From an uncultured virus (IMG/VR IMGVR_UViG_3300036860_000214) (Duplodnaviria > Heunggongvirae > Uroviricota > Caudoviricetes), in IMG/VR virus record IMGVR_UViG_3300036860_000214: a DNA stretch of 20,000 nt; one strand, given 5' to 3'. A program made the translations under genes and the position numbers. The notes under the pieces are model-generated. The model saw only the letters and a list, made by a program, of their open reading frames with translations, did not search any database and was not told the DNA's origin. Of this stretch, positions 4,411-17,626 are shown one piece after another. The stretch's first letter is position 1. Each line of letters opens with the position of its first letter.

Positions 4411-4541
4411 CAGGTGGAGGTTCCTCCCAGGTCGGGGGTGGGTAGAGATGCGGGCGGGTCGGGTGCCGGCAGCAGGACCGCCACCGGACGGCATCGGACG
4501 TTCGGTGGCGACCCGCGTCGGCGCCCGGCCACTGGCATGCC

Positions 4542-4590
4542 GGCCGGGGCGGGCAGCCAGGCGGGCTCGACCTGACCGCCGCCCCGGGCC
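4542..4590 (-). terminator. Long GC-rich stem-loop just after the GT2 stop; possible U-tract-less terminator or processing site
   Basis: mRNA GGCCCGGGGCGGCGGUCAGG pairs with CCUGGCUGCCCGCCCCGGCC (about 19 bp with bulges and GU pairs); no U-tract. Confidence 0.45.
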
Positions 4591-4600
4591 AGTTCGGGGG

Positions 4601-5350
4601 CTACTGGCCGATTCTCGTCAGGCCCTCATACTCGATCGCCTGCACCGGCGTGTACGCCGACAGCGGCGTGAACCGGTGCACCACCAGCACCTCGGGAATC
4701 GGCGGGACGACCCCGCAGACCGCGCCGAGCTTGTCGAGGAAGATCCCGTCGGAGTGGTAGCAGGTGCTGGGCTCCTCGGGGAGCCACGGGTCGCCGATCT
4801 GGTCGAGCAGGCTGGTCCGCCAGGCCACCTGCGCGCCGTCGACCTGGCAGTCGAACGACGCGCCGAACTTCTGCTCGGTCGCTGGCCGGGCTGCGACCAT
4901 CGTCTCGACCCCGTCGGCGTCCAGGGTGGCGACGAGCTGGGAGCACCATACCGCCCCGACTTGCGGGAACCGGTCGAGGTAGCCGGCCATCACCTCGACG
5001 AACTGCGGCAGGTAGCGGTCGTCGTCGTAGAAGGTCGCCATGTACCGCCCGCGGACCAGGCCCCGACGGATCGCCTGGTTGGTCGCCCACCCGACCGGGC
5101 ATTTCGTTGCCTTCAGGTCGGGGCCTTCGCCGGTGAACGTCCACTCCACCAGCGGATGGGTGCGGTAGGTGCGCCAGATCCGCGCCATCGCCGCCGCCGC
5201 TTCGCCGGGTTCACCGCGCCACTGGCCCGAGTCGACGACCAGGAGCTGGAGGTCCTGGCTGGTCTGGGCCAGGACGCTGTTGATCGCCTCGCGGAGGTAC
5301 GGCCCCTTCATGTGGCTACAGAGCAGGATCGTCATCGCCGGAGCGGTCAT
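4601..5350 (-). CDS. Glycosyltransferase family 2 (GT-A fold), 249 aa
   Basis: YLREAINSVLAQT...LLVVDSG N-terminal GT2 signature; GRYMATFYDDD DxD-type motif; ATGA overlap with gmd. Confidence 0.9.
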   Translation of the reverse strand: MTAPAMTILLCSHMKGPYLREAINSVLAQTSQDLQLLVVDSGQWRGEPGEAAAAMARIWRTYRTHPLVEWTFTGEGPDLKATKCPVGWATNQAIRRGLVRGRYMATFYDDDRYLPQFVEVMAGYLDRFPQVGAVWCSQLVATLDADGVETMVAARPATEQKFGASFDCQVDGAQVAWRTSLLDQIGDPWLPEEPSTCYHSDGIFLDKLGAVCGVVPPIPEVLVVHRFTPLSAYTPVQAIEYEGLTRIGQ

Positions 5351-6300
5351 GCCGCCAGGGCCTCCAGGTCGTGGGCGACCAGCCGCCGGACGATCTCGGC
5401 GAACTTGACCGACGGCACCCACCCGAGCCGTTCCCGGGCCCGGGCCGCATCGCCCTGGAGATGGTCGACATCGGCGGGACGGTACAGGGCTGGGTCGCGG
5501 CGCAGATGCCGCGGCCAGTCCAGCCCGGCCTCGTCGAACGCGCGGCGGGCGAGCTCACCGACGGTGTGCGCCTGCCCCGTCGCCAGGACGTAGTCACCGG
5601 GAATCTCCTGAGCGGCGATCAGCGGCAGCGCTGCCACGTACTCCGGTGCCCAGCCCCAGTCGCGGCGGGCATTCAGGTTCCCGAGCACCAGATGCTGCTG
5701 CTGGCCGCGGGCGATCCTGGCGGCCGCCATGGTGACCTTGCGGGTGACGAACTCCTCACCGCGCCGCGGCGACTCGTGGTTGAACATGATCGCCGTCGAG
5801 GCGTGCAGGCCGTAGGACTCGCGGTAGTTCACCGTCGTGTGGTGCGCGAACGCCTTGGCGACCCCATAGGGCGACCTGGGCCGGAACGGTGTCCCCTCAT
5901 GCTGGGGCGCGGGCGCGGCGCCGAACATCTCCGACGAGCTGGCCTGCACCAGCCGGATGTGCGGGTCCATCTGCCGGATCGCCTCCAGCAGCCGCAGCAC
6001 TCCCAGCCCGGTGACCTCGGTCATCAGGGTCGGCTGCTGCCAACTCATGCCGACGAAGGTGACCGCGCCGAGGTTGAACACCACCTCCGGCTTGGACTCC
6101 TCCAGTGCGTGGCGAAGGCTCGAGGCGTCCAGCAGATCCCCGTCGACCAGCCGCAGACCCGGCACCAGGCCCTGGATCCAGGCGCGCTTGGGGTTGGCCT
6201 GCCCGCGGATTATACCCCACACCTCGTGGCCGTCGGCGGCGAGCTGCTCAGCGAGGTAACTCCCATCCTGGCCGGTCACCCCGATGACGAGGGCTCTCAC
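5347..6300 (-). CDS. gmd: GDP-mannose 4,6-dehydratase
   Basis: GVTGQDGSYLAE, QASSSEMFG, PRSPYGVAK (YxxxK), FNHESPRRGEEFVTRK and LGNLNARRDWG are hallmark Gmd motifs. Confidence 0.96.
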   Translation of the reverse strand: MRALVIGVTGQDGSYLAEQLAADGHEVWGIIRGQANPKRAWIQGLVPGLRLVDGDLLDASSLRHALEESKPEVVFNLGAVTFVGMSWQQPTLMTEVTGLGVLRLLEAIRQMDPHIRLVQASSSEMFGAAPAPQHEGTPFRPRSPYGVAKAFAHHTTVNYRESYGLHASTAIMFNHESPRRGEEFVTRKVTMAAARIARGQQQHLVLGNLNARRDWGWAPEYVAALPLIAAQEIPGDYVLATGQAHTVGELARRAFDEAGLDWPRHLRRDPALYRPADVDHLQGDAARARERLGWVPSVKFAEIVRRLVAHDLEALAA

Positions 6301-6569
6301 CGGGCTGCCCCGTCCTGGATCAACCGGGCGCCCTCAGCGCCGGCGCGGAGCTCGACCGACAGCCCGAGCAGCGTCAGCCCGTCGCCTCGGGGGGTCGGCA
6401 GGGCGAACGGCGGGACCTCGGGGGCGAACAGATCACGCAACATCTGCCACATCTCGCCGTCCATGACCCAGTGTCGCCGCTGCCGCTCCGCCAGCGGCAC
6501 CGAGTACATCTCCTCGAACAGCACCCGCAGGATCATTTCCCGGTCGACCTGCTCACCAGTGGTGCTCAC
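6297..6569 (-). CDS. Hypothetical protein (90 aa) resembling an isolated segment of an HK97-type capsid protein
   Basis: GTGA overlaps at both ends; start moved to GTG 6569; W...R...F...G...LLG spacing matches the capsid protein in this window. Confidence 0.7.
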   Translation of the reverse strand: MSTTGEQVDREMILRVLFEEMYSVPLAERQRRHWVMDGEMWQMLRDLFAPEVPPFALPTPRGDGLTLLGLSVELRAGAEGARLIQDGAAR

Positions 6570-7774
6570 AGCAGCACCGGGACCGGGATCGGAACCAGGA
6601 ACCGGCCACCGCGCTCCAGGAACGCCCGCTCCCGGTGGATGACGCCGGGCAGGTAGTTCCACGCCAGCAGCAGGTAGACATCGGGCGGCTCCCGGTCGCC
6701 GGGCGCGACGACGGGGATGTGGGTGCCGGGGGCGTAGCGGCCGATCTTGGCGGGGGTCAGATCCTCGATGTACTCCAGCAGGCTGGCACCGATGCTGCAG
6801 GCGTTCAGGAGCGTGGTCGACTTGGCGGTGGCGCCATACCCGGCCAGCCGGCGCCCTGCCCGCCGTTCAGCCATGACGAGGCTGGCCAGCCGGCCGCGAA
6901 GGTACTCGACCCGCCCGGCGAAGCTCTTGTAGGCACTCATACCGACCAGGCCGAGACGTTCCCGCTCGTACCAGACGCCCTCGGGTTCCTTGAGGTCGTG
7001 GCCGCGTAGCAGCGCCACCCGGATGCTCCCGCCCTGCTGCTCGGTCCAGTCGACCTTGGCGATCCGCAGCCCAGCCCTCGCGCACACCTGCCACAGCGAC
7101 CATAGCGAGAAGTAGAACCGGTGCTCGTGGTAGACGTGGTCGAACTGGTTGCCGGCCAGCAGGTCCGCCAGGTACTGCACCTCCACCACTGCCACGCCGT
7201 CGGGCGCGAGCAGGTCGACGATGCCGCCGAAGAAGTCGTCGAGGTCGGCGACGTGGGCGGCGACGTTGCGGGCGATGACGAGCCCGGCCGGGCCGACCTC
7301 CTCACGGATCTTCGCGGCGGCAGCCCGGCCGAACGGTTCGACGTAGCGGTCCAGCAGCCAGGCGAACGTCTGCAGCATCGGCCCTTCCGCCGGGTCGATC
7401 CCGACCACCGGACAGCCGGCCGCGTGGAAATGGCGCAGCAGGTCGCCGTCGTTGCAGGCGATCTCAACCGTCAGCCGCTTGGCCTGCTCCGGGTAGGTGG
7501 CCAGCAGCTCGGCGGCCAGCGCCTGATGCTCGGCGACCTTCGACGGCGACGCCCCCGAGTAGAACCCATAGCTCACATCCCAGAGCAGCTCATCGGGGAC
7601 GACCTCCAGGAGCTGCACCAGCCAGCAGGCGCGGCACACCGCGACCTCGAGCGGCCAGGTGTCCTCGGGTTCGTCGGGGGTGGCGGGGAACCGGTCGGCC
7701 AGCGGCGTGGAGCCGAGGTCGAGGAACACCTCGAGCTGATCGCTGCCGCAGCCGCCGCATCGGTCGCGTTGCAT
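6566..7774 (-). CDS. SAM-dependent NDP-hexose C-methyltransferase (TcaB9/NovU/EryBIII-like; Zn-binding, SAM and C-terminal domains)
   Basis: CGGC and CRAC zinc ligands, FLDLGSTPLAD, VEIACNDG, FDHVYHEH.FYFS, GGSIR, YGATAK, PGTHIPVV, LLLAWNY, GGRFLVPIP. Confidence 0.92.
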   Translation of the reverse strand: MQRDRCGGCGSDQLEVFLDLGSTPLADRFPATPDEPEDTWPLEVAVCRACWLVQLLEVVPDELLWDVSYGFYSGASPSKVAEHQALAAELLATYPEQAKRLTVEIACNDGDLLRHFHAAGCPVVGIDPAEGPMLQTFAWLLDRYVEPFGRAAAAKIREEVGPAGLVIARNVAAHVADLDDFFGGIVDLLAPDGVAVVEVQYLADLLAGNQFDHVYHEHRFYFSLWSLWQVCARAGLRIAKVDWTEQQGGSIRVALLRGHDLKEPEGVWYERERLGLVGMSAYKSFAGRVEYLRGRLASLVMAERRAGRRLAGYGATAKSTTLLNACSIGASLLEYIEDLTPAKIGRYAPGTHIPVVAPGDREPPDVYLLLAWNYLPGVIHRERAFLERGGRFLVPIPVPVLL

Positions 7775-7778
7775 GCAT

Positions 7779-7846
7779 GCCTCCGCAGGCTGTGGGGAGG
7801 GCTGGGCCGGACAGCTTGCGGAGGCGCCGAACCGGCCCGCCCTCCC
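7779..7846 (-). promoter_or_regulatory. Two interleaved inverted repeats (A-B-A'-B') over the methyltransferase RBS; candidate translational switch
   Basis: 7832-7846 pairs with 7795-7810 (15 bp, 1 bulge); 7811-7825 pairs with 7779-7793 (14 of 15 bp), which contains the GGAGG SD at 7780-7784. Confidence 0.65.
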
Positions 7847-7858
7847 ATCCTTGTCGTG

Positions 7859-8035
7859 CTACTCCTTCGGCTTGCCTTTCGCCTTCGGTTCCGGCGTCGC
7901 TGGTGCCTCCGGGACCTTGAACTCCTCGACGTAGCCCTCGACGATCTTGGGGTCGCCCTCGGCTAGCACCGATCCCTCCTGCACGAACTGGTTGCCAGCC
8001 CAATAGGACTGGTTGGCGCGTACTAGCCCTGCCAT
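7859..8035 (-). CDS. Small protein (58 aa), not in the ORF track; resembles the short gene that often follows actinophage capsid genes
   Basis: MAGLVRANQSYWAGNQFVQEGSVLAEGDPKIVEGYVEEFKVPEAPATPEPKAKGKPKE*; GAGGAGG SD 7 nt upstream; Lys/Pro/Glu tail. Confidence 0.8.
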   Translation of the reverse strand: MAGLVRANQSYWAGNQFVQEGSVLAEGDPKIVEGYVEEFKVPEAPATPEPKAKGKPKE

Positions 8036-9039
8036 CCTGCGACCTCCTCATAGGCGTCCCGCCAGAGCTTCCAGCCGCTCTGGATCGTCCAGCCGTGGGC
8101 GACCTCTCGGCCCTTGGCGCCAAGTTCCGTCCGGGCGGCCTCATCGTTGATGAGCTCCCGCAGCCGCGCCGCCCACTGCTCCGACGTCGAGACGAGGTAG
8201 CCGGTGACGCCGTCGACGACCAGGTCGCGGTAGGCGGGGCAGTCCGACGCGATCACCGGCACCCCCAGCGCCATGTACTCCAGCGCCCGGATATGGGACT
8301 TCGAGGCGTTGAACGGGGTGTCGGCCAGCGGCGCCAGGCCGATGTCGAAGTCGTTGGCCTTGAAGTACCCCCACACATCCGGCTTCCACGGCGTGAACCG
8401 GGTCGGGCGGTCCAGCTTCAGCACCGGGGAGTAGTCGATCCCCAGGAAGTGCACATCCACATCCGGGTGCGCGTGCAGGACCTCGCGGACAGGGTCGGCG
8501 ATCTCGGTCCAGTCGCGCAGGTGCGACATGCCACCCGACCAGCCGACCGTCAGCCGCTCCCGGCGGGGCCGGGTCACATACAGCGCGTCGGCGTCGAAGT
8601 GGTTGGGGAGGACCACCACGTTGGGGTTGAGCTTGCGCATCTGGGTGGCCAGCGGCTCGGTCGATACCGTTACCAGGTCCGAGATGCGGATGCAGGTCTT
8701 GAACGACTCCCGGACCAGCGGCTCGAACCAGTGGTGCAGCCCCGACCACGTGTCGGGCTGGAGCACGTCGTCGTCGATCTCGTAGACGAGCAGCACCTTG
8801 CCCTTCCACCGCTGCCACAGCGCCATGCCGTCGGGGCCGCAGAACCGCTGCCCGACGATCATGTCGATCTCTTCGACCTGCTCGTCGTCGGGGGTGAACT
8901 TCACCCCCGGCTCCGGCAGCAGGATGCGATGCTCGGTCCCGCGGGCGAGATGCTGGTAGGGCAGGTAGTACCGGTAGTAGCCGGACCCGTCGGCCTGGTG
9001 GGGGTAGCCGAGGATCGTGAGCTGGTCGGATTGGGTCAC
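8023..9039 (-). CDS. Glycosyltransferase family 4 (GT-B fold), 338 aa
   Basis: GSGYYRY, LVYEIDD, DLVTVST, VVLPN, DIGLAPLADTPFNASKS..ALEYMALGVPVIASD...DGVTGYLV. Confidence 0.92.
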   Translation of the reverse strand: MTQSDQLTILGYPHQADGSGYYRYYLPYQHLARGTEHRILLPEPGVKFTPDDEQVEEIDMIVGQRFCGPDGMALWQRWKGKVLLVYEIDDDVLQPDTWSGLHHWFEPLVRESFKTCIRISDLVTVSTEPLATQMRKLNPNVVVLPNHFDADALYVTRPRRERLTVGWSGGMSHLRDWTEIADPVREVLHAHPDVDVHFLGIDYSPVLKLDRPTRFTPWKPDVWGYFKANDFDIGLAPLADTPFNASKSHIRALEYMALGVPVIASDCPAYRDLVVDGVTGYLVSTSEQWAARLRELINDEAARTELGAKGREVAHGWTIQSGWKLWRDAYEEVAGWQG

Positions 9040-9402: not shown

Positions 9403-9981
9403 TTACGCGCCGCGCGCTACATACCGCGCTGCGGCGGCGATGATCTCCGGGTCGTCCTTGAGCAGACCGATGGCCCGGTTGCAGTGCTCGCACAGCAGCC
9501 CACGAACCCGGCCGGTCACATGATCGTGGTCGACAGGCCAATGCCAGCTTGACCGGTTGGGTTTCCCAGCATGCTTGCCGCCAGGCTCGGTGGTCTTGCA
9601 GATGGCGCAACAGCGCCCCTGCGCCTCGAACAGCTCCGCATACTGCTCGGGCGTGAGGTCGTAGAGCTTCTTGAGCACGTGGCGGCGCTTGTAATCCGGC
9701 TTGTCCCAGATGGCCTCGCCGAACGGCATCCTCCGCCGTGCCGGTTCTCCCGGCGAGCCTGTCTTGAGGAGACGCGCCCGGTGCATTGGGCAGTAGGTCG
9801 CGTCATGCTCGCGGAGCTGGTCGCAGCCCAGCAGCTTGCAGCGGCGCTCGCCGGTCTCGTACTGGCGGATCGGTGCAGTCAGATCCAAGCCGTTCTCAGC
9901 CCGGTACTTATGCGTCGAGCAGAAGCCCTTGGCCTTGTACCGACGGTTACAGCCATCGGCGGAGCAGGTACGCTCGCTCAT
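9403..9981 (-). CDS. Endonuclease VII-family His-Me nuclease with N-terminal Cys/His repeats; probable free-standing homing endonuclease
   Basis: YDLTPEQYAELFEAQGRCCAIC...VDHDHVTGRVRGLLCEHCNRAIGLLKDD; two CxxxxC...CxxH units; SD spacing favours ATG 9981 over 9987. Confidence 0.9.
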   Translation of the reverse strand: MSERTCSADGCNRRYKAKGFCSTHKYRAENGLDLTAPIRQYETGERRCKLLGCDQLREHDATYCPMHRARLLKTGSPGEPARRRMPFGEAIWDKPDYKRRHVLKKLYDLTPEQYAELFEAQGRCCAICKTTEPGGKHAGKPNRSSWHWPVDHDHVTGRVRGLLCEHCNRAIGLLKDDPEIIAAAARYVARGA

Positions 9982-9990
9982 GGTCATTGC

Positions 9991-10079: not shown

Positions 10080-11474
10080 TTACTGGATGAGCAGCGCTTG
10101 CAGGGCGTTTGCCGTTGAGGCATCTGCGCCTACGCGCCAGAAGGCGAACCAGCCGGCTTCTGCAGTTGGCAAGTTAGCTGTGGCGGCGGCGGTCACCATC
10201 GGGTTATAGAGGACCCGCATCCCGATCCGGTCCACGATGATGTACTGCTCGAAGTCGCCGTACAGCAGGACCTTGGACGCCGACGCGGTGCCGGCCGACA
10301 GCGAGCTGGACTCGTAGACCGGCTGGCCGAGGAGCTGCTCGGGGGTGCCCTGGCCGAGGTTGGCCCAGAACGAGCTGCCCCCGGCGGTGTCGAACTGCCT
10401 TGTCTTGTTGATGTAGAAGAGGTTGGCGAGCCACGCCGCGCGGCGGCTGTTGCGGAACCGCGGCCCCAGGCGGCCCTGGAGGGTGTAGACGTCGCCGACG
10501 GCGTAGGCGGTCGCGGCGGCGGTGTTGCCGGTCGTCGCGGCCGTCATGGCGCCCTTGGGGATGTTGCCGGTGCCGACCCCGGTGGCGAACGCCGACTCCT
10601 CCAGGCGGTCCTTGGCGTCGGCGAACAGCCGCGGGAGCTGCAGGCCGAGGTCGGAGTCCTCCAGGGACTCGTAGGAGCCGAACACCCACGCCTGCGCGCG
10701 CTTGGGGGTGATCTGGATCTGCCCGACGCTCGGCGACTGGTCAGAGGCGGCGGTTGCCTCACCGACGAACGCGGCGTTGACGCCGGCGGAGGAGACGCCG
10801 TTCCAGGTGTTGGAGGTGGTCTGCTCGACCCGGGAGATCCGCCGGTAGGGGTTCATGCTGCCGGCATTGGTGAGGATGATGGTGGGGTCCAGCACGAACG
10901 GGAGCATGAACCCCAGGGAGCCGGTGCCGAGGGTGGTGGACCGCTGGCCCATCCCCTCGGGGTCCTGCAGGTAGGCGCGGAACTGCTCGTAGTACTCCTG
11001 CGATCCGGTGAGCAGGATGTGCTTGGCGACGCCGGGGACGGTGGTGGCGAGCTGGCTGGCGCGCTCGGCGTGCTCGTCGGGGAAGTCGACGAATCCGGCG
11101 CGGCTCACCCACTCGATCGCGTCGTGGGCGCGGGAGCGGATCTCCGAGGCGCGCATCCGCCCCGTCGGCCCGCTGGACCGCACCGACTCCATGTCGTCGA
11201 ACGGGTCGCGCTTGTTGCGGTAGACCTGCTCGGGTGCCTGCCGGTCGGAGCCGGGCTCGGTGGCGTCGTCGTCCTTGGCGGCGGCGGCGATCAGGTTGAG
11301 CTTCTCGGCGCGGGTCGCCAGCGGGACGCGCCGCTCCTCCAGCCGGTCATACTCGTCGACGAGGGTGTCGACGTAGTCGCCGGAGTGCTCCTCGACCTCG
11401 GCGGGGTTGTCCTCGATCTTCTTCAGTTCGGCGCGGATCGCCTCCTGCCGATCGAGGATCTCTCTGAGATTCAC
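10080..11474 (-). CDS. Major capsid protein, HK97 fold with N-terminal coiled-coil scaffold (delta-like) domain, 464 aa
   Basis: GTG 11474 with AAGGAGG SD; GFMLPFVLDPTIILT, AAFVGEA, FATGVGTGNIPKG, LLGQPVYESS, LLYGDFEQYIIVDRIG; follows the protease. Confidence 0.95.
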   Translation of the reverse strand: MNLREILDRQEAIRAELKKIEDNPAEVEEHSGDYVDTLVDEYDRLEERRVPLATRAEKLNLIAAAAKDDDATEPGSDRQAPEQVYRNKRDPFDDMESVRSSGPTGRMRASEIRSRAHDAIEWVSRAGFVDFPDEHAERASQLATTVPGVAKHILLTGSQEYYEQFRAYLQDPEGMGQRSTTLGTGSLGFMLPFVLDPTIILTNAGSMNPYRRISRVEQTTSNTWNGVSSAGVNAAFVGEATAASDQSPSVGQIQITPKRAQAWVFGSYESLEDSDLGLQLPRLFADAKDRLEESAFATGVGTGNIPKGAMTAATTGNTAAATAYAVGDVYTLQGRLGPRFRNSRRAAWLANLFYINKTRQFDTAGGSSFWANLGQGTPEQLLGQPVYESSSLSAGTASASKVLLYGDFEQYIIVDRIGMRVLYNPMVTAAATANLPTAEAGWFAFWRVGADASTANALQALLIQ

Positions 11475-11707
11475 TTCGAGCCTCCTTGCCCGGCCGGACC
11501 GTCGTGGCCCGGCCGGAGCGCTTTCGTGACCCGCATCTGCCGAAGCCGCCGCAGCAGCTTCCGTCTGGCCTCCAGCCGTTCGTACTCGTCCAGGAGCTCG
11601 TCGGCGAGGTCGCCGCGTGGCCCGTCGGTGACGGGTCCGTCGGCGGCGAGCCCGCGCAGCTCGGCGCGGATCGCCTCCTGCCGATCTGCGATCTCCCGGG
11701 GGTTCAT
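11471..11707 (-). CDS. 78-aa paralogue of the capsid N-terminus
   Basis: MNPREIADRQEAIRAEL...DEYERLEARR versus capsid VNLREILDRQEAIRAEL...DEYDRLEERR; 4-nt overlaps on both sides. Confidence 0.75.
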   Translation of the reverse strand: MNPREIADRQEAIRAELRGLAADGPVTDGPRGDLADELLDEYERLEARRKLLRRLRQMRVTKALRPGHDGPAGQGGSK

Positions 11708-13155
11708 CCGGGCTGGTCGCCCGAGGCGCTGCCACGGCGGGTCGCCAGCGCCTCGGCGGCGCGGGTGACGACCGGTGGCGGCAGCAGACCGGGACGGTCG
11801 GCCTTGAGCGCGCGGATGCGCGTCACAAGCTGGTCATGCCGGCTCGAGTGCTCCTCCTCCTCAGAGGGGGGCGAGTCGTCGGCGACGAGTCCCGAATCGT
11901 CGGGAGCGTCGGGGGATGGCTGGTCGTCCGACGAGTCCGCGTCCTGCGGAGCGTCGGGGGGAGCGTCATCCCGGAGCAGGGTGGCGAGTTGCGCACGCTC
12001 GCCGGGGGCCAGGCTGGAGAGCAGCTGCGCGGCCAGGCCAGCGCGCATCCCGACCACTGCCGCCTCGGCGTAGGCGGGGAACGGGGTCGGGCCGTACTCC
12101 CGCAGCGTCGATTCCATCCGCCGGACCGTGACCAGCTCCCCGCCCGGGCCGGGACGGAACCCGCCGCGGGGTATCCGGGTGATGGGGCGGCCGGTGTGGT
12201 CGGTCGCCGACGACCGCAGGTACATGCCCTGGAAGCTGTAGCCATCGATGGCGCCCTCGCGGATCAGCTCAAGGACCTCGTCGGCCAGCGCGGTGCGGTG
12301 GTAGCGGGTCAGCGTCCACAGCCCGCGGGCATCGGCCTTGACCTCCATCGGCGACCCGATCGGGACCGACCCCCGCTCCGAGGGGGTCCGGTAGATCGTC
12401 ATGCCGTGGTTGTAGAAGACCCCGACGCGCCAGCCGGTGCGGCCGCCCGCAGGGGCGGCATCGCTGATGGCGCGGTTGAACATGACGCGGTCGTTGACCT
12501 CGAGGTAGTGGCCGTCCTGGTCGTGGATCTCGGCGGGGGTATCGAACACCGCCGCGTAGGCCTCCACGGTGCGGCCGTCACCGCCGGCGCGGATGCGGAT
12601 GTCCTCCAGCGGGAACGAGCGGACATAGGGGTGCAGGCCGTCGAGCAGCTGGTCGGTGCGGCTGCCCGTCGCGCTCATCCCTGCTGCGGTCATGAGGCCC
12701 TCCGGGGGGTCTTCGTTGAGGTCGTTGCGGTAGAGGCTGACGAGCTTGCGGGCGGCGGCGCGCTTCTTGTCCGGGGAGACACCCGTCACCGCCCCGACAC
12801 CGTGGCCGCCGCCGGCGGCATGCACCGCGTTGCGGTTCAGCGCGCCGCTGGGTTCGCGGACGGGGAGCTTGTAGCGCTGCTTGCCCGCGCCTTCGCCGGT
12901 GTCGATCAGGCACGCGCGGGCCCACTGCTCGTCGGTGTAGTCCGCTTGGGTGAAGTCCGACCAGGGCCGGTTGGACACGGCCACGGCTGCCCTCCTGGAT
13001 GCTTGCGGCTCGGCCGCGTACAGGGCGGCCATCTGGCGTTCTGCGGCCTCACGGGTGGCGTGGCAGCGGCCGTCCACCGACCCGTCGGCGTCCTTGATGA
13101 CCCCGAACGGCTTGGACGCCGGACACTGGGATGTCTCATCGACGTGGTAGGGCAT
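11704..13155 (-). CDS. HK97-type prohead protease with two extra N-terminal domains and an acidic tail, 483 aa
   Basis: TVEAYAAVFD, VFYNHG, PIG, DARGL, LIREGAIDGYSF, LREYGPTPFPAYAEAAV; between portal and capsid. Confidence 0.92.
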   Translation of the reverse strand: MPYHVDETSQCPASKPFGVIKDADGSVDGRCHATREAAERQMAALYAAEPQASRRAAVAVSNRPWSDFTQADYTDEQWARACLIDTGEGAGKQRYKLPVREPSGALNRNAVHAAGGGHGVGAVTGVSPDKKRAAARKLVSLYRNDLNEDPPEGLMTAAGMSATGSRTDQLLDGLHPYVRSFPLEDIRIRAGGDGRTVEAYAAVFDTPAEIHDQDGHYLEVNDRVMFNRAISDAAPAGGRTGWRVGVFYNHGMTIYRTPSERGSVPIGSPMEVKADARGLWTLTRYHRTALADEVLELIREGAIDGYSFQGMYLRSSATDHTGRPITRIPRGGFRPGPGGELVTVRRMESTLREYGPTPFPAYAEAAVVGMRAGLAAQLLSSLAPGERAQLATLLRDDAPPDAPQDADSSDDQPSPDAPDDSGLVADDSPPSEEEEHSSRHDQLVTRIRALKADRPGLLPPPVVTRAAEALATRRGSASGDQPG

Positions 13156-13158
13156 CGC

Positions 13159-14670
13159 TCAGCCCACCCCGGCCGGGACCGGGGGCTTGCCGTTGCTCGC
13201 GGCGATGGCGCGGAGCCCACCGGGGCTCAGGTTGGCGCCGGCCTGGTTCAGCAGCGCCCTGGCTTCCTCAGCCGACAGCACCACGCCGACCCCGAGGTAG
13301 ACCTTCTGGACCATCTCGACGAGGTTGCGGGCCTGCTCGGCGGGGGTCGCCGGGGTCTGTCCGTCGCCCTCACCCGGCCGGATGAGCTGCACGCTGGTCA
13401 ATCCGGTGTGCCGCAGCAGGGTCTCGTCCTCGGTGTTAGCGGCCTCCACCGCCGACGCGGGCTCGAACCCGGCCTCCACGTACTGGCGGATCGTCTGGGC
13501 CTTGACGAACTGGACCTGGGCGCGGTCGGCGGCGTCCTCGCGGAGGAACGCGATCTGGCTCTCGTCGAACCACAGCCTGGCGCCCCGGTTGGGTGGCGGC
13601 ACGATCGCCTGAAGCGACCCGCAGACGTTGCGCCACAGCGGCCGTAGGGTCGTGTCGGCGGTGACCCGCCGGGCAGCGCCGAAGTTCCCCGCGTTCAGCG
13701 AGCTGCCCTGGAGGCCCTCCGACAGCCCAGCGATCACGGGATGGATGCCGGCGGCGGCGGCGATCCTCGTCTCGCCCTTGCCCTGGGTGTTGGAGAAGTC
13801 CAGTTGGGCGAGGTCCTTGCCGGCCACCGTCACATCCGCGCCGCCGCCGAGGTAGAGGGTGCGGTAGGCGTTGCGCCACCCGACGTTCTCCCGGTCCATC
13901 TTGGACACGAACTTCTCGAACGCCTCCTGTGACACCGAGGCGTCAAATGACACGACGAGCTGGGGGGTGGCGCCGTTGCGGAAGAACCCGAGCTTGTGTT
14001 CGGTGGTGGCCTGGTCGCCCTCGATCTCCCGGATCACCGGCGTCAACCACGACATCCCCCGGAACCGTGCCATGGGGTCGGGCTTGGGCGCGAAGTGGGC
14101 GAACTCCGACCGCGTCAGCGCCTCCGGCTCGGTCGAGCCATCCTTGGGGTCGTAGATGAGGCCGATCAGGTTGGCGTCGAGCTGGCTGGCGCTCTGCACC
14201 GGCCGGCCGTTGCGGTCCCCCATGACCAGCGTCACCCAGTCGGGACGCAGCAGACGAATCTGGTCGGAGTCGTCGGCGGTGCGGGCCGGGTAGGCGTTGC
14301 CACCCAGGTCGGCGTGCAGTAGCGCCTTAGCGAGCAGGTCCCCGGTCGTGGCATGCGGCCACGGCTGTTCGAGGATGTCCAGGTCGGGGGTGGAGAACAG
14401 GCGGCCCGGCTTGCCGGCGTTGAACGCCTGCCAGATGAACCACGCCTCCGAGAAGATGTCGACGCGCTTGGACTCCACCGCGAACACCACCGCGTTGGCC
14501 TTCAGCGCCCCCTCGACCAGACCCGCGAAGTTGGCCTCGATGCCCTCCTGGTCGACCTGCCCCGAGGTGCCGACCGCGAAGTAGCCGCCCATGCCGAGCT
14601 GGAACGGGTCGGGGTCGGTCGGGAACGGCCAGGAGAACCCGCGGCGGGCGTGCTGCAGCAGGTTCGTCAC
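13159..14670 (-). CDS. Portal protein (HK97/lambda-like), 503 aa
   Basis: LDILEQPWP, DLGGNAY, LLRPDWV, RGMSWL, FFRNGATP, RIAAAAGIHP; between terL and protease. Confidence 0.92.
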   Translation of the reverse strand: MTNLLQHARRGFSWPFPTDPDPFQLGMGGYFAVGTSGQVDQEGIEANFAGLVEGALKANAVVFAVESKRVDIFSEAWFIWQAFNAGKPGRLFSTPDLDILEQPWPHATTGDLLAKALLHADLGGNAYPARTADDSDQIRLLRPDWVTLVMGDRNGRPVQSASQLDANLIGLIYDPKDGSTEPEALTRSEFAHFAPKPDPMARFRGMSWLTPVIREIEGDQATTEHKLGFFRNGATPQLVVSFDASVSQEAFEKFVSKMDRENVGWRNAYRTLYLGGGADVTVAGKDLAQLDFSNTQGKGETRIAAAAGIHPVIAGLSEGLQGSSLNAGNFGAARRVTADTTLRPLWRNVCGSLQAIVPPPNRGARLWFDESQIAFLREDAADRAQVQFVKAQTIRQYVEAGFEPASAVEAANTEDETLLRHTGLTSVQLIRPGEGDGQTPATPAEQARNLVEMVQKVYLGVGVVLSAEEARALLNQAGANLSPGGLRAIAASNGKPPVPAGVG

Positions 14671-14936
14671 GGGCTACCGTCCACCGGATACAGCAACAGG
14701 AATGACACCGCCATGACGAGACCGCCGAGCATCAGCGCCCAGCCGAGGCCGAACTGCACCCCGACACCCCACGCGGCCACCGCGACGCCGCCCGAATAGC
14801 CGACGCGGGCGCGCACCAGATGGGACGCCCGGCGGGCGCGGTCCCACAGCCGCCGGCCCACACGCGCGGGGCGTTCCAGCATGGCTCGGGGGTCCAGCAA
14901 CAGCGGACGGCGAAGCGGGAGCTGGCGCACTGCCAT
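14667..14936 (-). CDS. Small membrane protein between terL and portal (89 aa)
   Basis: AGGAGG SD before ATG 14936; two hydrophobic segments; GTGA overlap with portal. Confidence 0.75.
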   Translation of the reverse strand: MAVRQLPLRRPLLLDPRAMLERPARVGRRLWDRARRASHLVRARVGYSGGVAVAAWGVGVQFGLGWALMLGGLVMAVSFLLLYPVDGSP

Positions 14937-14947
14937 CGGTTCGCCTC

Positions 14948-16571
14948 CTACCGGTACGCCGCCCATGGGGCAGCCGCTGCTGGTTCCGCCTCGAACAGCC
15001 CGGCCGCTAGCGCGTCGATGCGGGCCGCGTCTGCGAGCACCCCGGCCACCGCACCGTCGATCTTGCGGGGGGAATGCGGGCGGTCCTTCTGCAACACGAA
15101 CGGGCGCGCCTCGCCGTCGTCGACCCGCAGCCGCACGTACAGCTTGTGCGCGTTGGCGACATGGCGGGCCAGCCGCGGGTCGCCGTCGTGGGTCAGCTCA
15201 CCGGAACGGATGCCGGCGTCGGCGGCCAGCACCGCCGGCGCGAACCGGCCCGCCGAGTTGGTCGGGAACTCCGCGACCACGTCCTTGCCGTACCGCTCCG
15301 CCCAGGTCGCTAGCCACGCCCGGTACTCCCGCGGGTCGCCGTAGAACCGCGGCACCCGCCACCTGGCGAAGGTGTCGGCGACGGCTTGGTCGACCTCGGC
15401 CTGCGGCACCACCCAACCATCGCCGGTCCGCCCGGGTGTCCGCTCCCACATGGCGATCACGAACCAGTGGCGGTCGCGGGTGCAGCCCAGCAGCGTGGTC
15501 GAGTCCCGACTGATCGACCCGTCGAACCCGACCGTGATCGGCTCGCCATCGGCCACTGTCACCGTTGGGTCGGCCCGGGCCGCCCACACCTGCGGGTCGA
15601 CCCAACGCGCCGCGCCGGCGCGGCGCTGGTTCAGGAAGTAGCGGCGCTGCTCGTTCTCATCAAACCGCGGATCTCGGATCTCGGCCATCAGCCGCGGCAG
15701 GTCCATGACCCCGGCGAACGGGCCGTAGCCGTGATGGAGCTCGGCCAGCAGCGCCCGGTCGTCGCCAAGATCGGGGACCGCGTCGTCGGCGGCACCCTTG
15801 TGGTCCAGCAGTAGCCGCGGCAGGGCGCCCTTGGCGTGCTCGACGTGGGTGTCCTCAGCGACCGACACCTCGCCGGGCGCGTACATGGTGGAGGTCTGGA
15901 GCATCCAGCCTTGGCTGTCGCGGCGCTTGGCGGTGTTGCGCCGCACCATCCGGTACATGCTCCGCAGCTCCGGCAGCACGTACAGGTGGGTCTCGTCGGC
16001 TTCCCCTCGATCTAGCCACCGCGAAGGTCTCCTTGCCGCCGTCCTTGGCGGCCGAGCTCGCGGTGCTAGGTCGAATCTCACCTCCCCCGGGCAGATACAC
16101 CCGCGTGGAAGTCTGCCAGTCTCGCCCGAGGTCGACGCCGCCAAACATCTCGGGGTGAGTGTCGCGGGCGACCTCCAGCATGTAGGCCACGTTGGCGTAG
16201 GTGTTCCCGGCCTGCCCTTCCTCAGTAGCGAGGGCCCGCACAAACGGATACCGCACCGAGCGGCCGACCGGCTCCCCGGCCGCGTCCCAGCCGTCGAACC
16301 GGACCGGGCCCCTGGCCTCCGCGCAGACCAGCATCCCGGCCAGCTCCGACTTCGCCCGCCCCTTCGGCCGACTCAGCAGCGCCTCGTCGTAGACCCGCCT
16401 CCCGGTCACCGGGTCTAGGGCATAGGCGCGCAGCAGGAACGCGGTCAGCTCGTCATCTAGGCGGATCGGGGTACCCTGCACGTCGCCCGGGCCATGCACC
16501 AGGTAGGCTTCAATCCACGCCAGGACCTGCCAGCCGAGGGTCGGGCGGCCCTCGGGGTCGACGTCACGCAC
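14948..16571 (-). CDS. terL: Terminase large subunit split across two frames by a 16-nt insert in Walker B; 535 aa if the insert is skipped (recoded gene or pseudogene)
   Basis: First frame: Walker A SRPKGRAKS and KDGGKETFAVA. Second frame: ADETHLY, LQTST, nuclease motifs VGFDGS...DST and KIDGAVA. Removing 16001-16016 gives FAVADETH and one 1608-nt ORF. Confidence 0.92.
16001..16016 (-). other. 16-nt frame-disrupting insert GCTAGATCGAGGGGAA in terL (equally placeable at 15998-16013)
   Basis: Read directly: TTC GCG GTG [GCT AGA TCG AGG GGA A] GCC GAC GAG ACC CAC. Confidence 0.9.
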
Positions 16572-16992
16572 CGCCGGCCAGCCGCTGGCGGCGGTCCTCC
16601 AGCGACGAGACGTTCCCCTCGCCACCCTGGGCCACCGGTTCAGCAGTCGGCTGGCCGACCGTCCACAGCAGCAGCCGCATCGCCTTCGGCGTCAGCCCAA
16701 GCTCCGTCTCCAGCTTGCTCGCCTGCGCCTGGATCGCTGCCGCCGATCCGGGCCGCTCAGCACGGAGCATGATCCGGCAGTAGCGCGCCACCGTTCGCGT
16801 CCAGCCGAGCTTCACCCACGCGAATGCCTGTGGGGTCCGCCAGAGCTGCGGCCAGGCCTCCTGCTCGGCCTTGGTCCACCGACCGGGCAGCGGCCAGGCC
16901 GGGACCTCGCCCTGGTAGCCCTCGGCAGGAAGCTCGAGCGGGCCGACCCGCGGCTTGTGGCCATGCGGCTCGAAGCTCGGAACCTGGGGCAT
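16564..16992 (-). CDS. terS: Terminase small subunit (actinophage type), 142 aa
   Basis: GGAGG SD; W..LWRTPQA.AW, VARYCR, LGLTPKAMR; overlaps the terL start. Confidence 0.85.
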   Translation of the reverse strand: MPQVPSFEPHGHKPRVGPLELPAEGYQGEVPAWPLPGRWTKAEQEAWPQLWRTPQAFAWVKLGWTRTVARYCRIMLRAERPGSAAAIQAQASKLETELGLTPKAMRLLLWTVGQPTAEPVAQGGEGNVSSLEDRRQRLAGGA

Positions 16993-17109
16993 GACCCTTC
17001 ACCTCCGCAGCCCGAGACGTCTGATGGGTCGGCACAGCGAGATCGATTGGGCGGGGGCGCGAGAGTCGGACAAGACGGACGTGCCGGCCCCGCCCCCCTA
17101 CCCTCCCGC
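16993..17109. other. Candidate cos/packaging-initiation region
   Basis: Only sizeable non-coding gap between HNH and terS; contains a G-tract (17088-17107, minus strand). Positional inference only. Confidence 0.45.
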
Positions 17110-17259
17110 TCAGGCTCCGCGTTTGCTGGCCGTCCATGCGGCGGCCCAGAACCCCAGGCCGAGGCTGAACAGGACCACGTCGCCGCCCTTGACGCCGATG
17201 GCGTCTGCGAAGAACGACAGCGCGGCGAGCACACCGAGGATGACGGTGAGAATCGGCAC
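17110..17259 (-). CDS. Small two-helix membrane protein (about 49 aa)
   Basis: PILTVILGVLAALSFFADAIGVKGGDVVLFSLGLGFWAAAW; high GC3; GTG start uncertain, no clear SD. Confidence 0.6.
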   Translation of the reverse strand: MPILTVILGVLAALSFFADAIGVKGGDVVLFSLGLGFWAAAWTASKRGA

Positions 17260-17270
17260 GGGTGCCGTGG

Positions 17271-17447
17271 CTACTTGTCGGTGCCGAACGGCGGGCAGTG
17301 GTCCTGGCCGCTGGCCTGGCACTGGGTGGAGCCGTTGTTGGAGTGGCCGCTGTTGCCGGCCGGGGGGTCGGCGAGGGCGGCGGACAGGCCGATGGCGGAC
17401 AGGGCGAACAGGGCGACGCCGACGACGGCGATGCGCGCCTTGGTCAT
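17271..17447 (-). CDS. Small secreted peptide with signal sequence (58 aa)
   Basis: AGGAG SD; MTKARIAVVGVALFALSAIGLSAALA then DPPAGNSG...; two Cys; ATGA overlap. Confidence 0.75.
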   Translation of the reverse strand: MTKARIAVVGVALFALSAIGLSAALADPPAGNSGHSNNGSTQCQASGQDHCPPFGTDK

Positions 17448-17626
17448 GGTGATCTCCTGAGGTGCTTGCGACCGAGAAGTACCCGGCCGAGGACGACGAT
17501 GATGAGGGGTCGCCAGTAGATGTGGCCGTAGGTTCGGTAGCCGATGTGGGTGCCGTAGGTGCCGCCGTACCACTTGCGGCGGAACTCGATGTCCGGCTTG
17601 CGGTAGGCCCGCTGCGCCTCGCTCAC
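17444..17626 (-). CDS. Small hypothetical protein (60 aa, aromatic/basic)
   Basis: AGGAGG SD; GTGA overlap with the HNH gene and ATGA overlap downstream. Confidence 0.7.
   Translation of the reverse strand: MSEAQRAYRKPDIEFRRKWYGGTYGTHIGYRTYGHIYWRPLIIVVLGRVLLGRKHLRRSP

Follow-up and report, generated by a model that had tools for sequence, protein, structure and literature searches.

Introduction

To our knowledge, programmed bypassing of mRNA by the translating ribosome is established in very few systems: gene 60 of phage T4, the mitochondria of Magnusiomyces and, in part, the terminase of phage Hau3. The closest to the locus described here is the Hau3 terminase bypass (PMC10732093, PMC5009743, both available in part). 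The accessible text of the first report counts three interrupted genes among 100 ter genes, which are the large terminases of Streptomyces phage phiHau3, of prophage StrepC.1 and of an S. catenulae prophage; all involve UUA and gaps of 7-10 nt, located either at Walker A or a short way ahead of Walker B. The same text describes the confirmation by mass spectrometry of the Hau3 g6/g7 bypass in E. coli, with UAA replacing UUA, and proposes an internal Shine-Dalgarno sequence (SD) and a hairpin for this type of bypass (PMC10732093). In the case of T4 gene 60, pairing of the exiting mRNA is proposed as the driver and an SD as the arrest signal (available part of bioRxiv 2024.12.09.627546), and T4-type variants of clade 5 present an out-of-frame UAG and a rare AGG Arg codon after take-off (available part of bioRxiv 2022.08.31.505936). 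For T4 genes 25 and 38, the accessible text of PMC3014915 describes how an intervening hairpin reduces the spacing of SD and P-site codon from 22-27 nt to 5-11 nt.

The locus studied here lies in a 20,000-nt stretch of DNA from an uncultured Caudoviricetes virus (IMG/VR IMGVR_UViG_3300036860_000214), hereafter the window, a phage segment of 71% GC in which terS, terL, portal, protease and capsid genes all occupy the minus strand. Its terL is interrupted by 16 nt, and from the sequence comparisons reported below we consider it quite likely that programmed translational bypassing makes the full-length large terminase (TerL). The best reading is a bypass of the phiHau3 kind with a new site, a new trigger and a new geometry. 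As far as the accessible Hau3 text goes, the likeness lies in a short frame-breaking insert in a conserved ATPase motif of TerL with a slow codon after take-off, in pairs of synonymous NNU/NNC codons (GGC/GGU and UCU/UCC in Hau3, GCU/GCC in the window), and in the internal SD and stem-loop 5' of the gap, Hau3 g7/g8 likewise having, 5' of its take-off site, a stem and an SD-like GGCGGUGA. The window differs by its site, which is 5 codons 3' of the g7/g8 junction, directly before Asp-Glu, and is not that of g6/g7 (Walker A); by its trigger, which is AGA, with stops or UUA in its relatives (UUA in 4 of the 10 others), and not UUA only; by a gap of 16 nt (1-16 in the family) versus 7-10; by a TerL of a different clade; and by a perfect SD about 70 nt upstream whose folded spacing is conserved at 9-14 nt in its family, compared with about 20 nt in our own fold of Hau3 g7/g8. 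The window thus appears to work like the Hau3 bypass but, with neither its UUA nor its site, is a variant rather than a member.

Results

Two halves of one terL gene

The features of the locus, in coordinates of the window, are the following.

16564..16992, minus strand: terS (context); open, full-length match to relatives
16014..16571, minus strand: 5' part of terL, codons 1-186, which cover Walker A and the ATPase as far as F-A-V-A, the strand of Walker B (PHROG 9, E 2e-21 for its ORF)
16078..16085, minus strand: internal SD GGAGGUGA, a perfect SD formed by rare Gly codons GGA GGT; main conserved signal
16057..16075, minus strand: 5' arm of the predicted long stem; its rare codons ATT CGA CCT pair with the gap
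16035..16052, minus strand: inner GC hairpin closing the long stem
16006..16025, minus strand: 3' arm of the long stem, spanning the take-off codon and continuing 8 nt into the gap
16014..16016, minus strand: putative take-off codon GCU (Ala186), in alignment opposite the residue that ends the Walker B strand of intact relatives
15998..16013, minus strand: 16-nt coding gap (from the sequence, alignment to intact relatives, and contigs)
16011..16013, minus strand: putative A-site codon AGA, a rare Arg codon by codon counts
16003..16008, minus strand: GAGGGG mini-SD, its GAG 5 nt before landing and inside the stem; possible extra signal
15998..16000, minus strand: putative landing codon GCC (Ala), the first GCU/GCC triplet 3' of take-off, 5 nt 3' of the stem
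14948..15997, minus strand: 3' part of terL, 349 aa, catalytic Asp-Glu through the nuclease domain (PHROG 9, E 1e-38 for its ORF)
15855..15857, minus strand: zero-frame stop ending the non-bypassed 238-aa product (by translation)
10080..14670, minus strand: genes for portal, prohead protease and major capsid protein (context), each of them open

From its GTG start at 16571, the zero frame of terL encodes 186 TerL residues and then 52 unrelated ones, and this non-bypassed product of 238 aa is present in the protein database (P0001). The +1 frame picks up at Asp-Glu-Thr-His and continues for 349 aa down to 14948. A previous reading of the sequence alone, whose quoted gap region matches the window DNA, had claimed that a skip of 16 nt restores a TerL of 535 aa. 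This is confirmed by the reading frames: leaving out 16013-15998 joins both halves into 535 aa, each half matches the PHROG 9 TerL, and L001, L003 and L004, which are intact relatives, pass the junction in one continuous frame, so that these 16 nt are extra. AGA, which it called rare in high-GC hosts, is rare here too: across 17 ORFs of the window, not all of them verified genes, it makes up 4 of 389 Arg codons, and within terL none of 55. In Micrococcus luteus this codon is unassigned. An out-of-frame UAG at 16014-16012, which the earlier reading did not mention, overlaps the A-site AGA.

The insert is real. Single contigs of two soil runs, each of which may be where the window DNA comes from, carry it at depths of 90 and 11 with zero differing letters, and no 16-nt deletion appears among the indel rows listed for these contigs, which were compared in place of raw reads. 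Their agreement argues against an assembly error, and a rare gap-free minority could still exist. Over 14500-17500 there is also full identity with the nearest virus record (G001; 22.8 kb, 25% complete), which however probably has the same source and is therefore not independent.

Position of the gap in the Walker B motif

In an alignment of 67 of the 111 full-length intact relatives, D190, E191, H193 and L194 are invariant, and residues 186-190 form a strand in the structure model of the nearest intact protein (pLDDT 93). The HK97 large terminase is the best solved-structure match by profile search and by fold search; phmmer with one intact TerL gave no PDB match. On the pattern of terminase ATPases, we take the strand and the invariant acids at the gap to be Walker B, so that the gap would separate the Walker B strand from its catalytic acids.

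Relatives broken at the same codon

Collections of viruses, metagenomes and genomes, searched by homology and with patterns aimed at the gap, yielded 168 distinct junctions, the window included, of which 157 are intact and 11 are broken at the same codon; this proportion is not a frequency, because the pattern searches enriched both classes, and the intact set was partly collected with a fixed-spacing pattern. The broken junctions, given as take-off, A-site and landing codons, have gaps of 1, 1, 1, 8, 8, 8, 8, 9, 10, 10 and 16 nt.

GCU-AGA-GCC: 16 nt, the window
UUC-UAG-GUC: 10 nt
UUC-UUA-CUC: 10 nt
UUC-UGA-GUC: 9 nt with an in-frame stop, L131
UUC-UAG-UCC: 8 nt
UUC-UUA-GUC: 8 nt, two cases
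UUC-UUA-UUC: 8 nt
UUU-UGA: 1-nt insert, three cases (L028/L122, L120 and L124, the last being a locus in Plantactinospora alkalitolerans)

Both gene halves are open in all 11, with a 3' part of 349-367 aa; that of 121 intact genes measures 332-367 aa (5th-95th percentile). On a tree of 128 of the 168 rows, the 40 others being too short, the broken state requires 10 changes, at least 7 of which are forced by strongly supported branches, and most broken genes adjoin intact ones. The recent transfer of a cassette between distant lineages was considered and found unsupported, cassette identity (0.76-0.78) being like that of the flanks. Inside the L008 group it is 0.92-0.99. Between the non-window broken genes and their intact neighbours it falls to 0.64-0.77, a dip that the window cassette does not show (0.82 to L002).

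The yield of the individual gap-directed pattern searches was 4 terL genes in 21 matches, 7 true gaps in 11 matches, and 5 true gaps, 3 of them already known, in 12 matches. A further pattern search gave 33 matches, comprising 28 intact genes, 4 long gaps and one unclear case. In L289, terL departs right after Thr-Phe into sequence unlike TerL, with no resume motif within 120 nt, and perhaps contains an intron or a larger element. In one actinomycete family the motif was found in 5 of 301 genomes, corresponding to 3 intact terL, the broken L124 and one unrelated locus. As regards the homing endonucleases known to accompany T4 gene 60, the 26 selected ORFs of 10 broken loci that this count covers include one HNH gene, near terS in 1 of the 10.

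These relatives bear on the idea that a +1 frameshift takes place in the gap, for instance at its G-run, giving a TerL with about 5 extra residues, or that the two frames yield two complementing chains. The +1 frame is indeed open upstream as far as 16243, and a +1 shift is plausible for the three relatives with a 1-nt insert, two of which have the distant SD described below. Stimulation of +1 frameshifting by an SD is the prfB mechanism, which UUU followed by UGA with a 1-nt insert in L028, L120 and L124 recalls; unlike prfB, however, the SD of these genes stands about 70 nt upstream and not a few nt, L124 has none, and the window gap is 16 nt. A plain +1 shift in the latter would insert about five residues at the end of strand 186-190, directly before the invariant D190-E191, and the gap scans of relatives found no open in-frame insertion at this junction. 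Moreover, the in-frame stop within the 9-nt gap of L131 is not explicable by a frameshift, this gene and the 8-nt (+2) gaps requiring another event, and a division into complementing chains would part the strand from its catalytic residues. Frameshifting or complementation in the window is for these reasons very improbable.

A distant Shine-Dalgarno sequence and its geometry

The main signal of the broken genes, which the sequence-only reading did not mention, is GGAGGUG about 65-70 nt 5' of take-off, present in 9 of the 11 broken and in none of the 157 intact junctions (10 of 11 and 1 of 157 when GGGGGUG is counted too). The exceptions are the broken L124, which has no SD, and the intact L209, which has GGGGGUG; the SD energy of one intact gene reaches -16.1. 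By chance, GGAGGUG arises in 17 of 2000 synonymous recodings. It is found in two codon registers, for which 0 of 109 and 0 of 14 intact genes with permissive residues possess it, and in 8 of the 10 pairs of broken and intact neighbours on the tree only the broken member has the SD.

When the RNA is folded from the SD to just before the landing codon, all eight gaps of 8-16 nt give one closed stem, with 4-7 nt from SD to stem and 5-7 nt from stem to landing codon, the summed folded spacing from SD to landing being 9-14 nt in every case. In the seven gaps of 8-10 nt the stem ends at or adjoins the take-off codon; in the window the rare codons ATT CGA CCT let it extend 8 nt into the gap, whose length is greater to match, a longer stem going with a longer gap. 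The landing codon has one mismatch at position 1 or 2 in 6 of the 8 longer gaps, which suggests that position matters more than codon match.

Two details of the sequence-only reading are modified by these data. The match on which it relied, between the take-off codon and the landing codon, is present in the window (GCU/GCC) but is not the rule among the longer gaps. The GAGGGG that it called SD-like does exist, with GAG 5 nt before landing, but the SD that is conserved lies farther off, 5' of the stem, and reads GGAGGUG; the other 10 broken junctions have no GAGGGG in their gaps, and the 10-nt gap of the sibling P0005 is too short for all of it.

An event at the RNA level, by micro-intron excision or polymerase skipping, could also remove the gap before translation, and would make the imperfect landing codons irrelevant; the junction is surrounded by strong structure and a GC direct repeat flanks the gap. 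Sixteen nucleotides are far too few for self-splicing, however, the gaps of 1 to 16 nt have no common end sequences, and the stop or rare codon that follows take-off in 11 of 11 junctions points, together with the conserved SD, to the ribosome. We regard such a removal as very improbable.

The stem and the codons that form it

The pairing of 16057-16075 with 16006-16025 over about 18 pairs, already noticed in the sequence-only reading, is upheld by folding: with its 6-nt loop, the stem has an energy of -47.7 kcal/mol (z -4.4) that none of 200 shuffles equals, and of 2000 synonymous recodings not one reaches the -41.0 of the actual sequence. Among 1993 70-nt windows, 17 fold as well as the junction stem, which does not rank first in the window: on the minus strand, local hairpins are strongest at 4530-4680, near the end of a glycosyltransferase gene, with energies down to -47 kcal/mol per 70 nt. 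The codons ATT CGA CCT, said to be atypical, do not occur together in any of the 157 intact junctions, nor in any of the 29 of these that encode I-R-P. More generally, the 78 nt before take-off contain rarer codons in broken genes (p 1e-6; 11 vs 114).

Inserts at this site, which the sequence-only reading asked to look for together with covarying stems, occur in 11 of 168 junctions; core-stem covariation is within the range of shuffles (165 of 500 as high), with changes on both sides in 1 of 11 pairs. The arm-pairing energies of broken and intact genes overlap, intact ones reaching -16.8. In UUA-type gaps, UUACC can pair with GGUGA of the SD, as seen in the folds of L116, L118 and L121 and by inspection in L140, and the free mRNA may in this way hide the SD.

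The stem also lends itself to a quite different explanation, that of a dead gene, in which upstream sequence was copied into Walker B by template switching at a quasi-palindrome and terL was inactivated in a phage or prophage that is defective. Within the insert, the first 10 nt nearly repeat 16057-16075 in inverted form, a partial stem pre-exists in the intact L001, and the 16-nt form is known from one genotype only. This accident would nevertheless require that the rare upstream codons and the perfect SD pre-existed by chance (0 of 157 intact junctions) and that the same codon was struck in at least 7 lineages with the halves remaining open, as are terS, portal, protease and capsid genes. 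An exact-pattern scan of 185,579 prokaryote genomes returned 7 matches, a single one of them a true broken terL. Inactivation is further weakened by the low dN/dS (below 0.15) of four broken siblings, which is 0.03-0.13 in both halves for dS of 0.4-0.95; since the broken siblings are mosaic with intact genes, these values partly reflect time spent intact and are supportive, not conclusive. The dead prophage, which the sequence-only reading kept as its alternative, is thus unlikely in view of recurrence, SD and open halves, and we give it a very small probability. The terL gap is probably functional.

Interchangeable trigger codons

Size-limited protein searches (the best 120 of 167 matches and 105 more) provided 199 distinct proteins, among which 14 end exactly after the Walker B strand, 16 diverge right after it, 63 pass Asp-Glu and end at scattered places, and 79 stop short of the motif; some of the 14 and 16 are products of loci already counted among the broken junctions. 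A stop follows the strand in 14 of these 30, and Arg follows take-off in 5, the window's own product included. P0005 (82% identical) reads Ala-Arg-Ser-Gly and then the frameshifted signature, which implies a 10-nt gap with Ala landing, and P0003 (84% identical) likewise has Arg next after the Ala take-off. As judged from these two proteins, which are known from protein sequence alone, the Ala-Arg form is probably a lineage. Some protein tails might correspond to group II introns.

These codons bear on the purpose of the hop. The sequence-only reading suggested a hop triggered by hungry AGA that limits TerL or ties packaging to host tRNA status; in the second form the hop would sense host Arg-tRNA(UCU), as had been proposed with UUA for Hau3. 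Such a purpose is compatible with the bypass itself, AGA is very rare in the window, UUA occupies 4 junctions, and and the Arg after take-off in the proteins mentioned above fits it. But AGA occupies the A site in only 1 of the 11 junctions and a stop, the commonest trigger there and among the proteins, in 6; near-identical cassettes exchange UUA for UGA (L008 group vs L131), and no tRNA gene was found within the window. Trigger codons that can replace one another argue against the sensing of one tRNA, and this purpose appears doubtful.

A second class of inserts and the neighbourhood of terL

Streptomyces phage Ponzi carries a 50-nt hairpin insert, similar in length to the gap of T4 gene 60, in terL Walker B (PQ723756.1 23302-23351; L112:1129-1178). 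The insert sits between repeated UUU GUC, the terL is annotated as two genes, and skipping gives about 520 aa; no DNA-level match to it was found in other phage records. Four viral loci (L279, L285, L293 and L301) contain perfect-hairpin inserts from the Walker B Phe codon, two of them distinct (56 and 57 nt), and upstream GGAGGU is absent from all four; in the 57-nt form a stop lies in frame and the landing codon is imperfect. Eighteen listed database proteins with Pro-rich then Gly-rich tails fit this 50-57-nt hairpin class. In the literature searched, which covered few subscription journals, we found no report of gaps at this terL codon, of stop or Arg triggers in terminase bypass, or of the gap in the Ponzi terL.

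The surroundings deserve a brief description. A sugar-modification cluster (4601-9039) occupies the late region directly after capsid and endonuclease VII, with two glycosyltransferases, a GDP-mannose dehydratase-like enzyme and a C-methyltransferase, and possibly serves virion glycosylation. The endonuclease VII gene (9403-9987) is free-standing and follows the capsid gene, 6 kb downstream of the gap. An HNH nuclease gene stands about 4.5 kb upstream of the gap (L303:2230-3477), and L303 also holds a DNA methyltransferase gene.

Discussion

Same-spot gaps of varied size, a distant SD and a stem in the relatives make it most likely that ribosomes hop on purpose at this codon. The proposal of a programmed bypass made from the window alone is therefore strongly supported, by the recurrence (11 of 168 junctions), the recurring signals and the purifying selection, with three of its details corrected.

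The model that we propose begins with a ribosome that has stalled while GCU occupies its P site and the A site presents a slow codon, AGA in the window and UAG, UGA or UUA in its relatives. The mRNA leaving the ribosome would fold from the inner hairpin outward, and the zipping of the long stem would take in the take-off codon, thereby blocking re-pairing and pushing the ribosome forward. The finished stem would loop out between the distant SD and the P site, and the pairing of the SD with 16S rRNA would halt the slide 5-7 nt past the stem, where the peptidyl-tRNA-Ala would re-pair on GCC and decoding would restart at Asp-Glu. We infer every one of these steps, be it the stall, the take-off driven by refolding or the arrest by the SD. 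As to its role, the hop likely tolerates an insert in a conserved motif and lowers the output of TerL.

Such a mechanism borrows from the T4 systems, as far as the accessible texts describe them. As in gene 60, the take-off and landing codons of the window can be read by one tRNA, and its AGA with an out-of-frame UAG after take-off recalls the clade 5 variants. The gene 60 mini-SD lies 5-7 nt before landing, and the GAG of the window 5 nt before it, but inside the stem and not in the relatives' gaps. Gene 60 differs by a gap of about 50 nt versus 16, by a tetraloop take-off hairpin where the window has its take-off codon in the 3' arm of a mostly upstream-coding stem, by an SD in the gap, where the one conserved in the window family is upstream of take-off, and by its context, a topoisomerase gene with an adjacent MobA homing endonuclease compared with a terL without a MobA cassette. 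Genes 25 and 38 offer the other half of the analogy, since there too a hairpin brings the SD close to the P-site codon; their hairpins, however, are small and act at initiation, whereas the window stem, of about 60-70 nt, would act during elongation, and the 60-nt structure looped out between SD and P site would be larger than in those genes.

Could these elements form a general recoding device, distinct from that of T4 gene 60? We put this forward tentatively, as a possibility that falls somewhat short of being probable: an SD about 70 nt upstream would be docked at the P site by an extruded coding-sequence stem of 60-70 nt, landing would be set by distance and not by codon match, and one cassette would drive anything from a +1 shift to a 16-nt hop with any slow codon. 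This device would have originated, or been passed on, no fewer than 7 times at the catalytic Walker B codon in a single terminase family, and a second class of 50-57-nt hairpins, which includes Ponzi, would occupy the same motif.

In conclusion, where there were three cases, all with UUA, the locus and its relatives provide a natural series in which gap length, trigger codon, landing match and stem length vary while the SD geometry stays fixed. This series makes it possible to test what determines where the ribosome lands and whether frameshifts and hops form a single continuum, and it weakens the idea that terminase bypassing exists for UUA sensing. Ponzi, which grows on S. lividans and is thus culturable, shows that a propagated phage can carry a break in Walker B, and many terL genes annotated as split or truncated are probably working genes.
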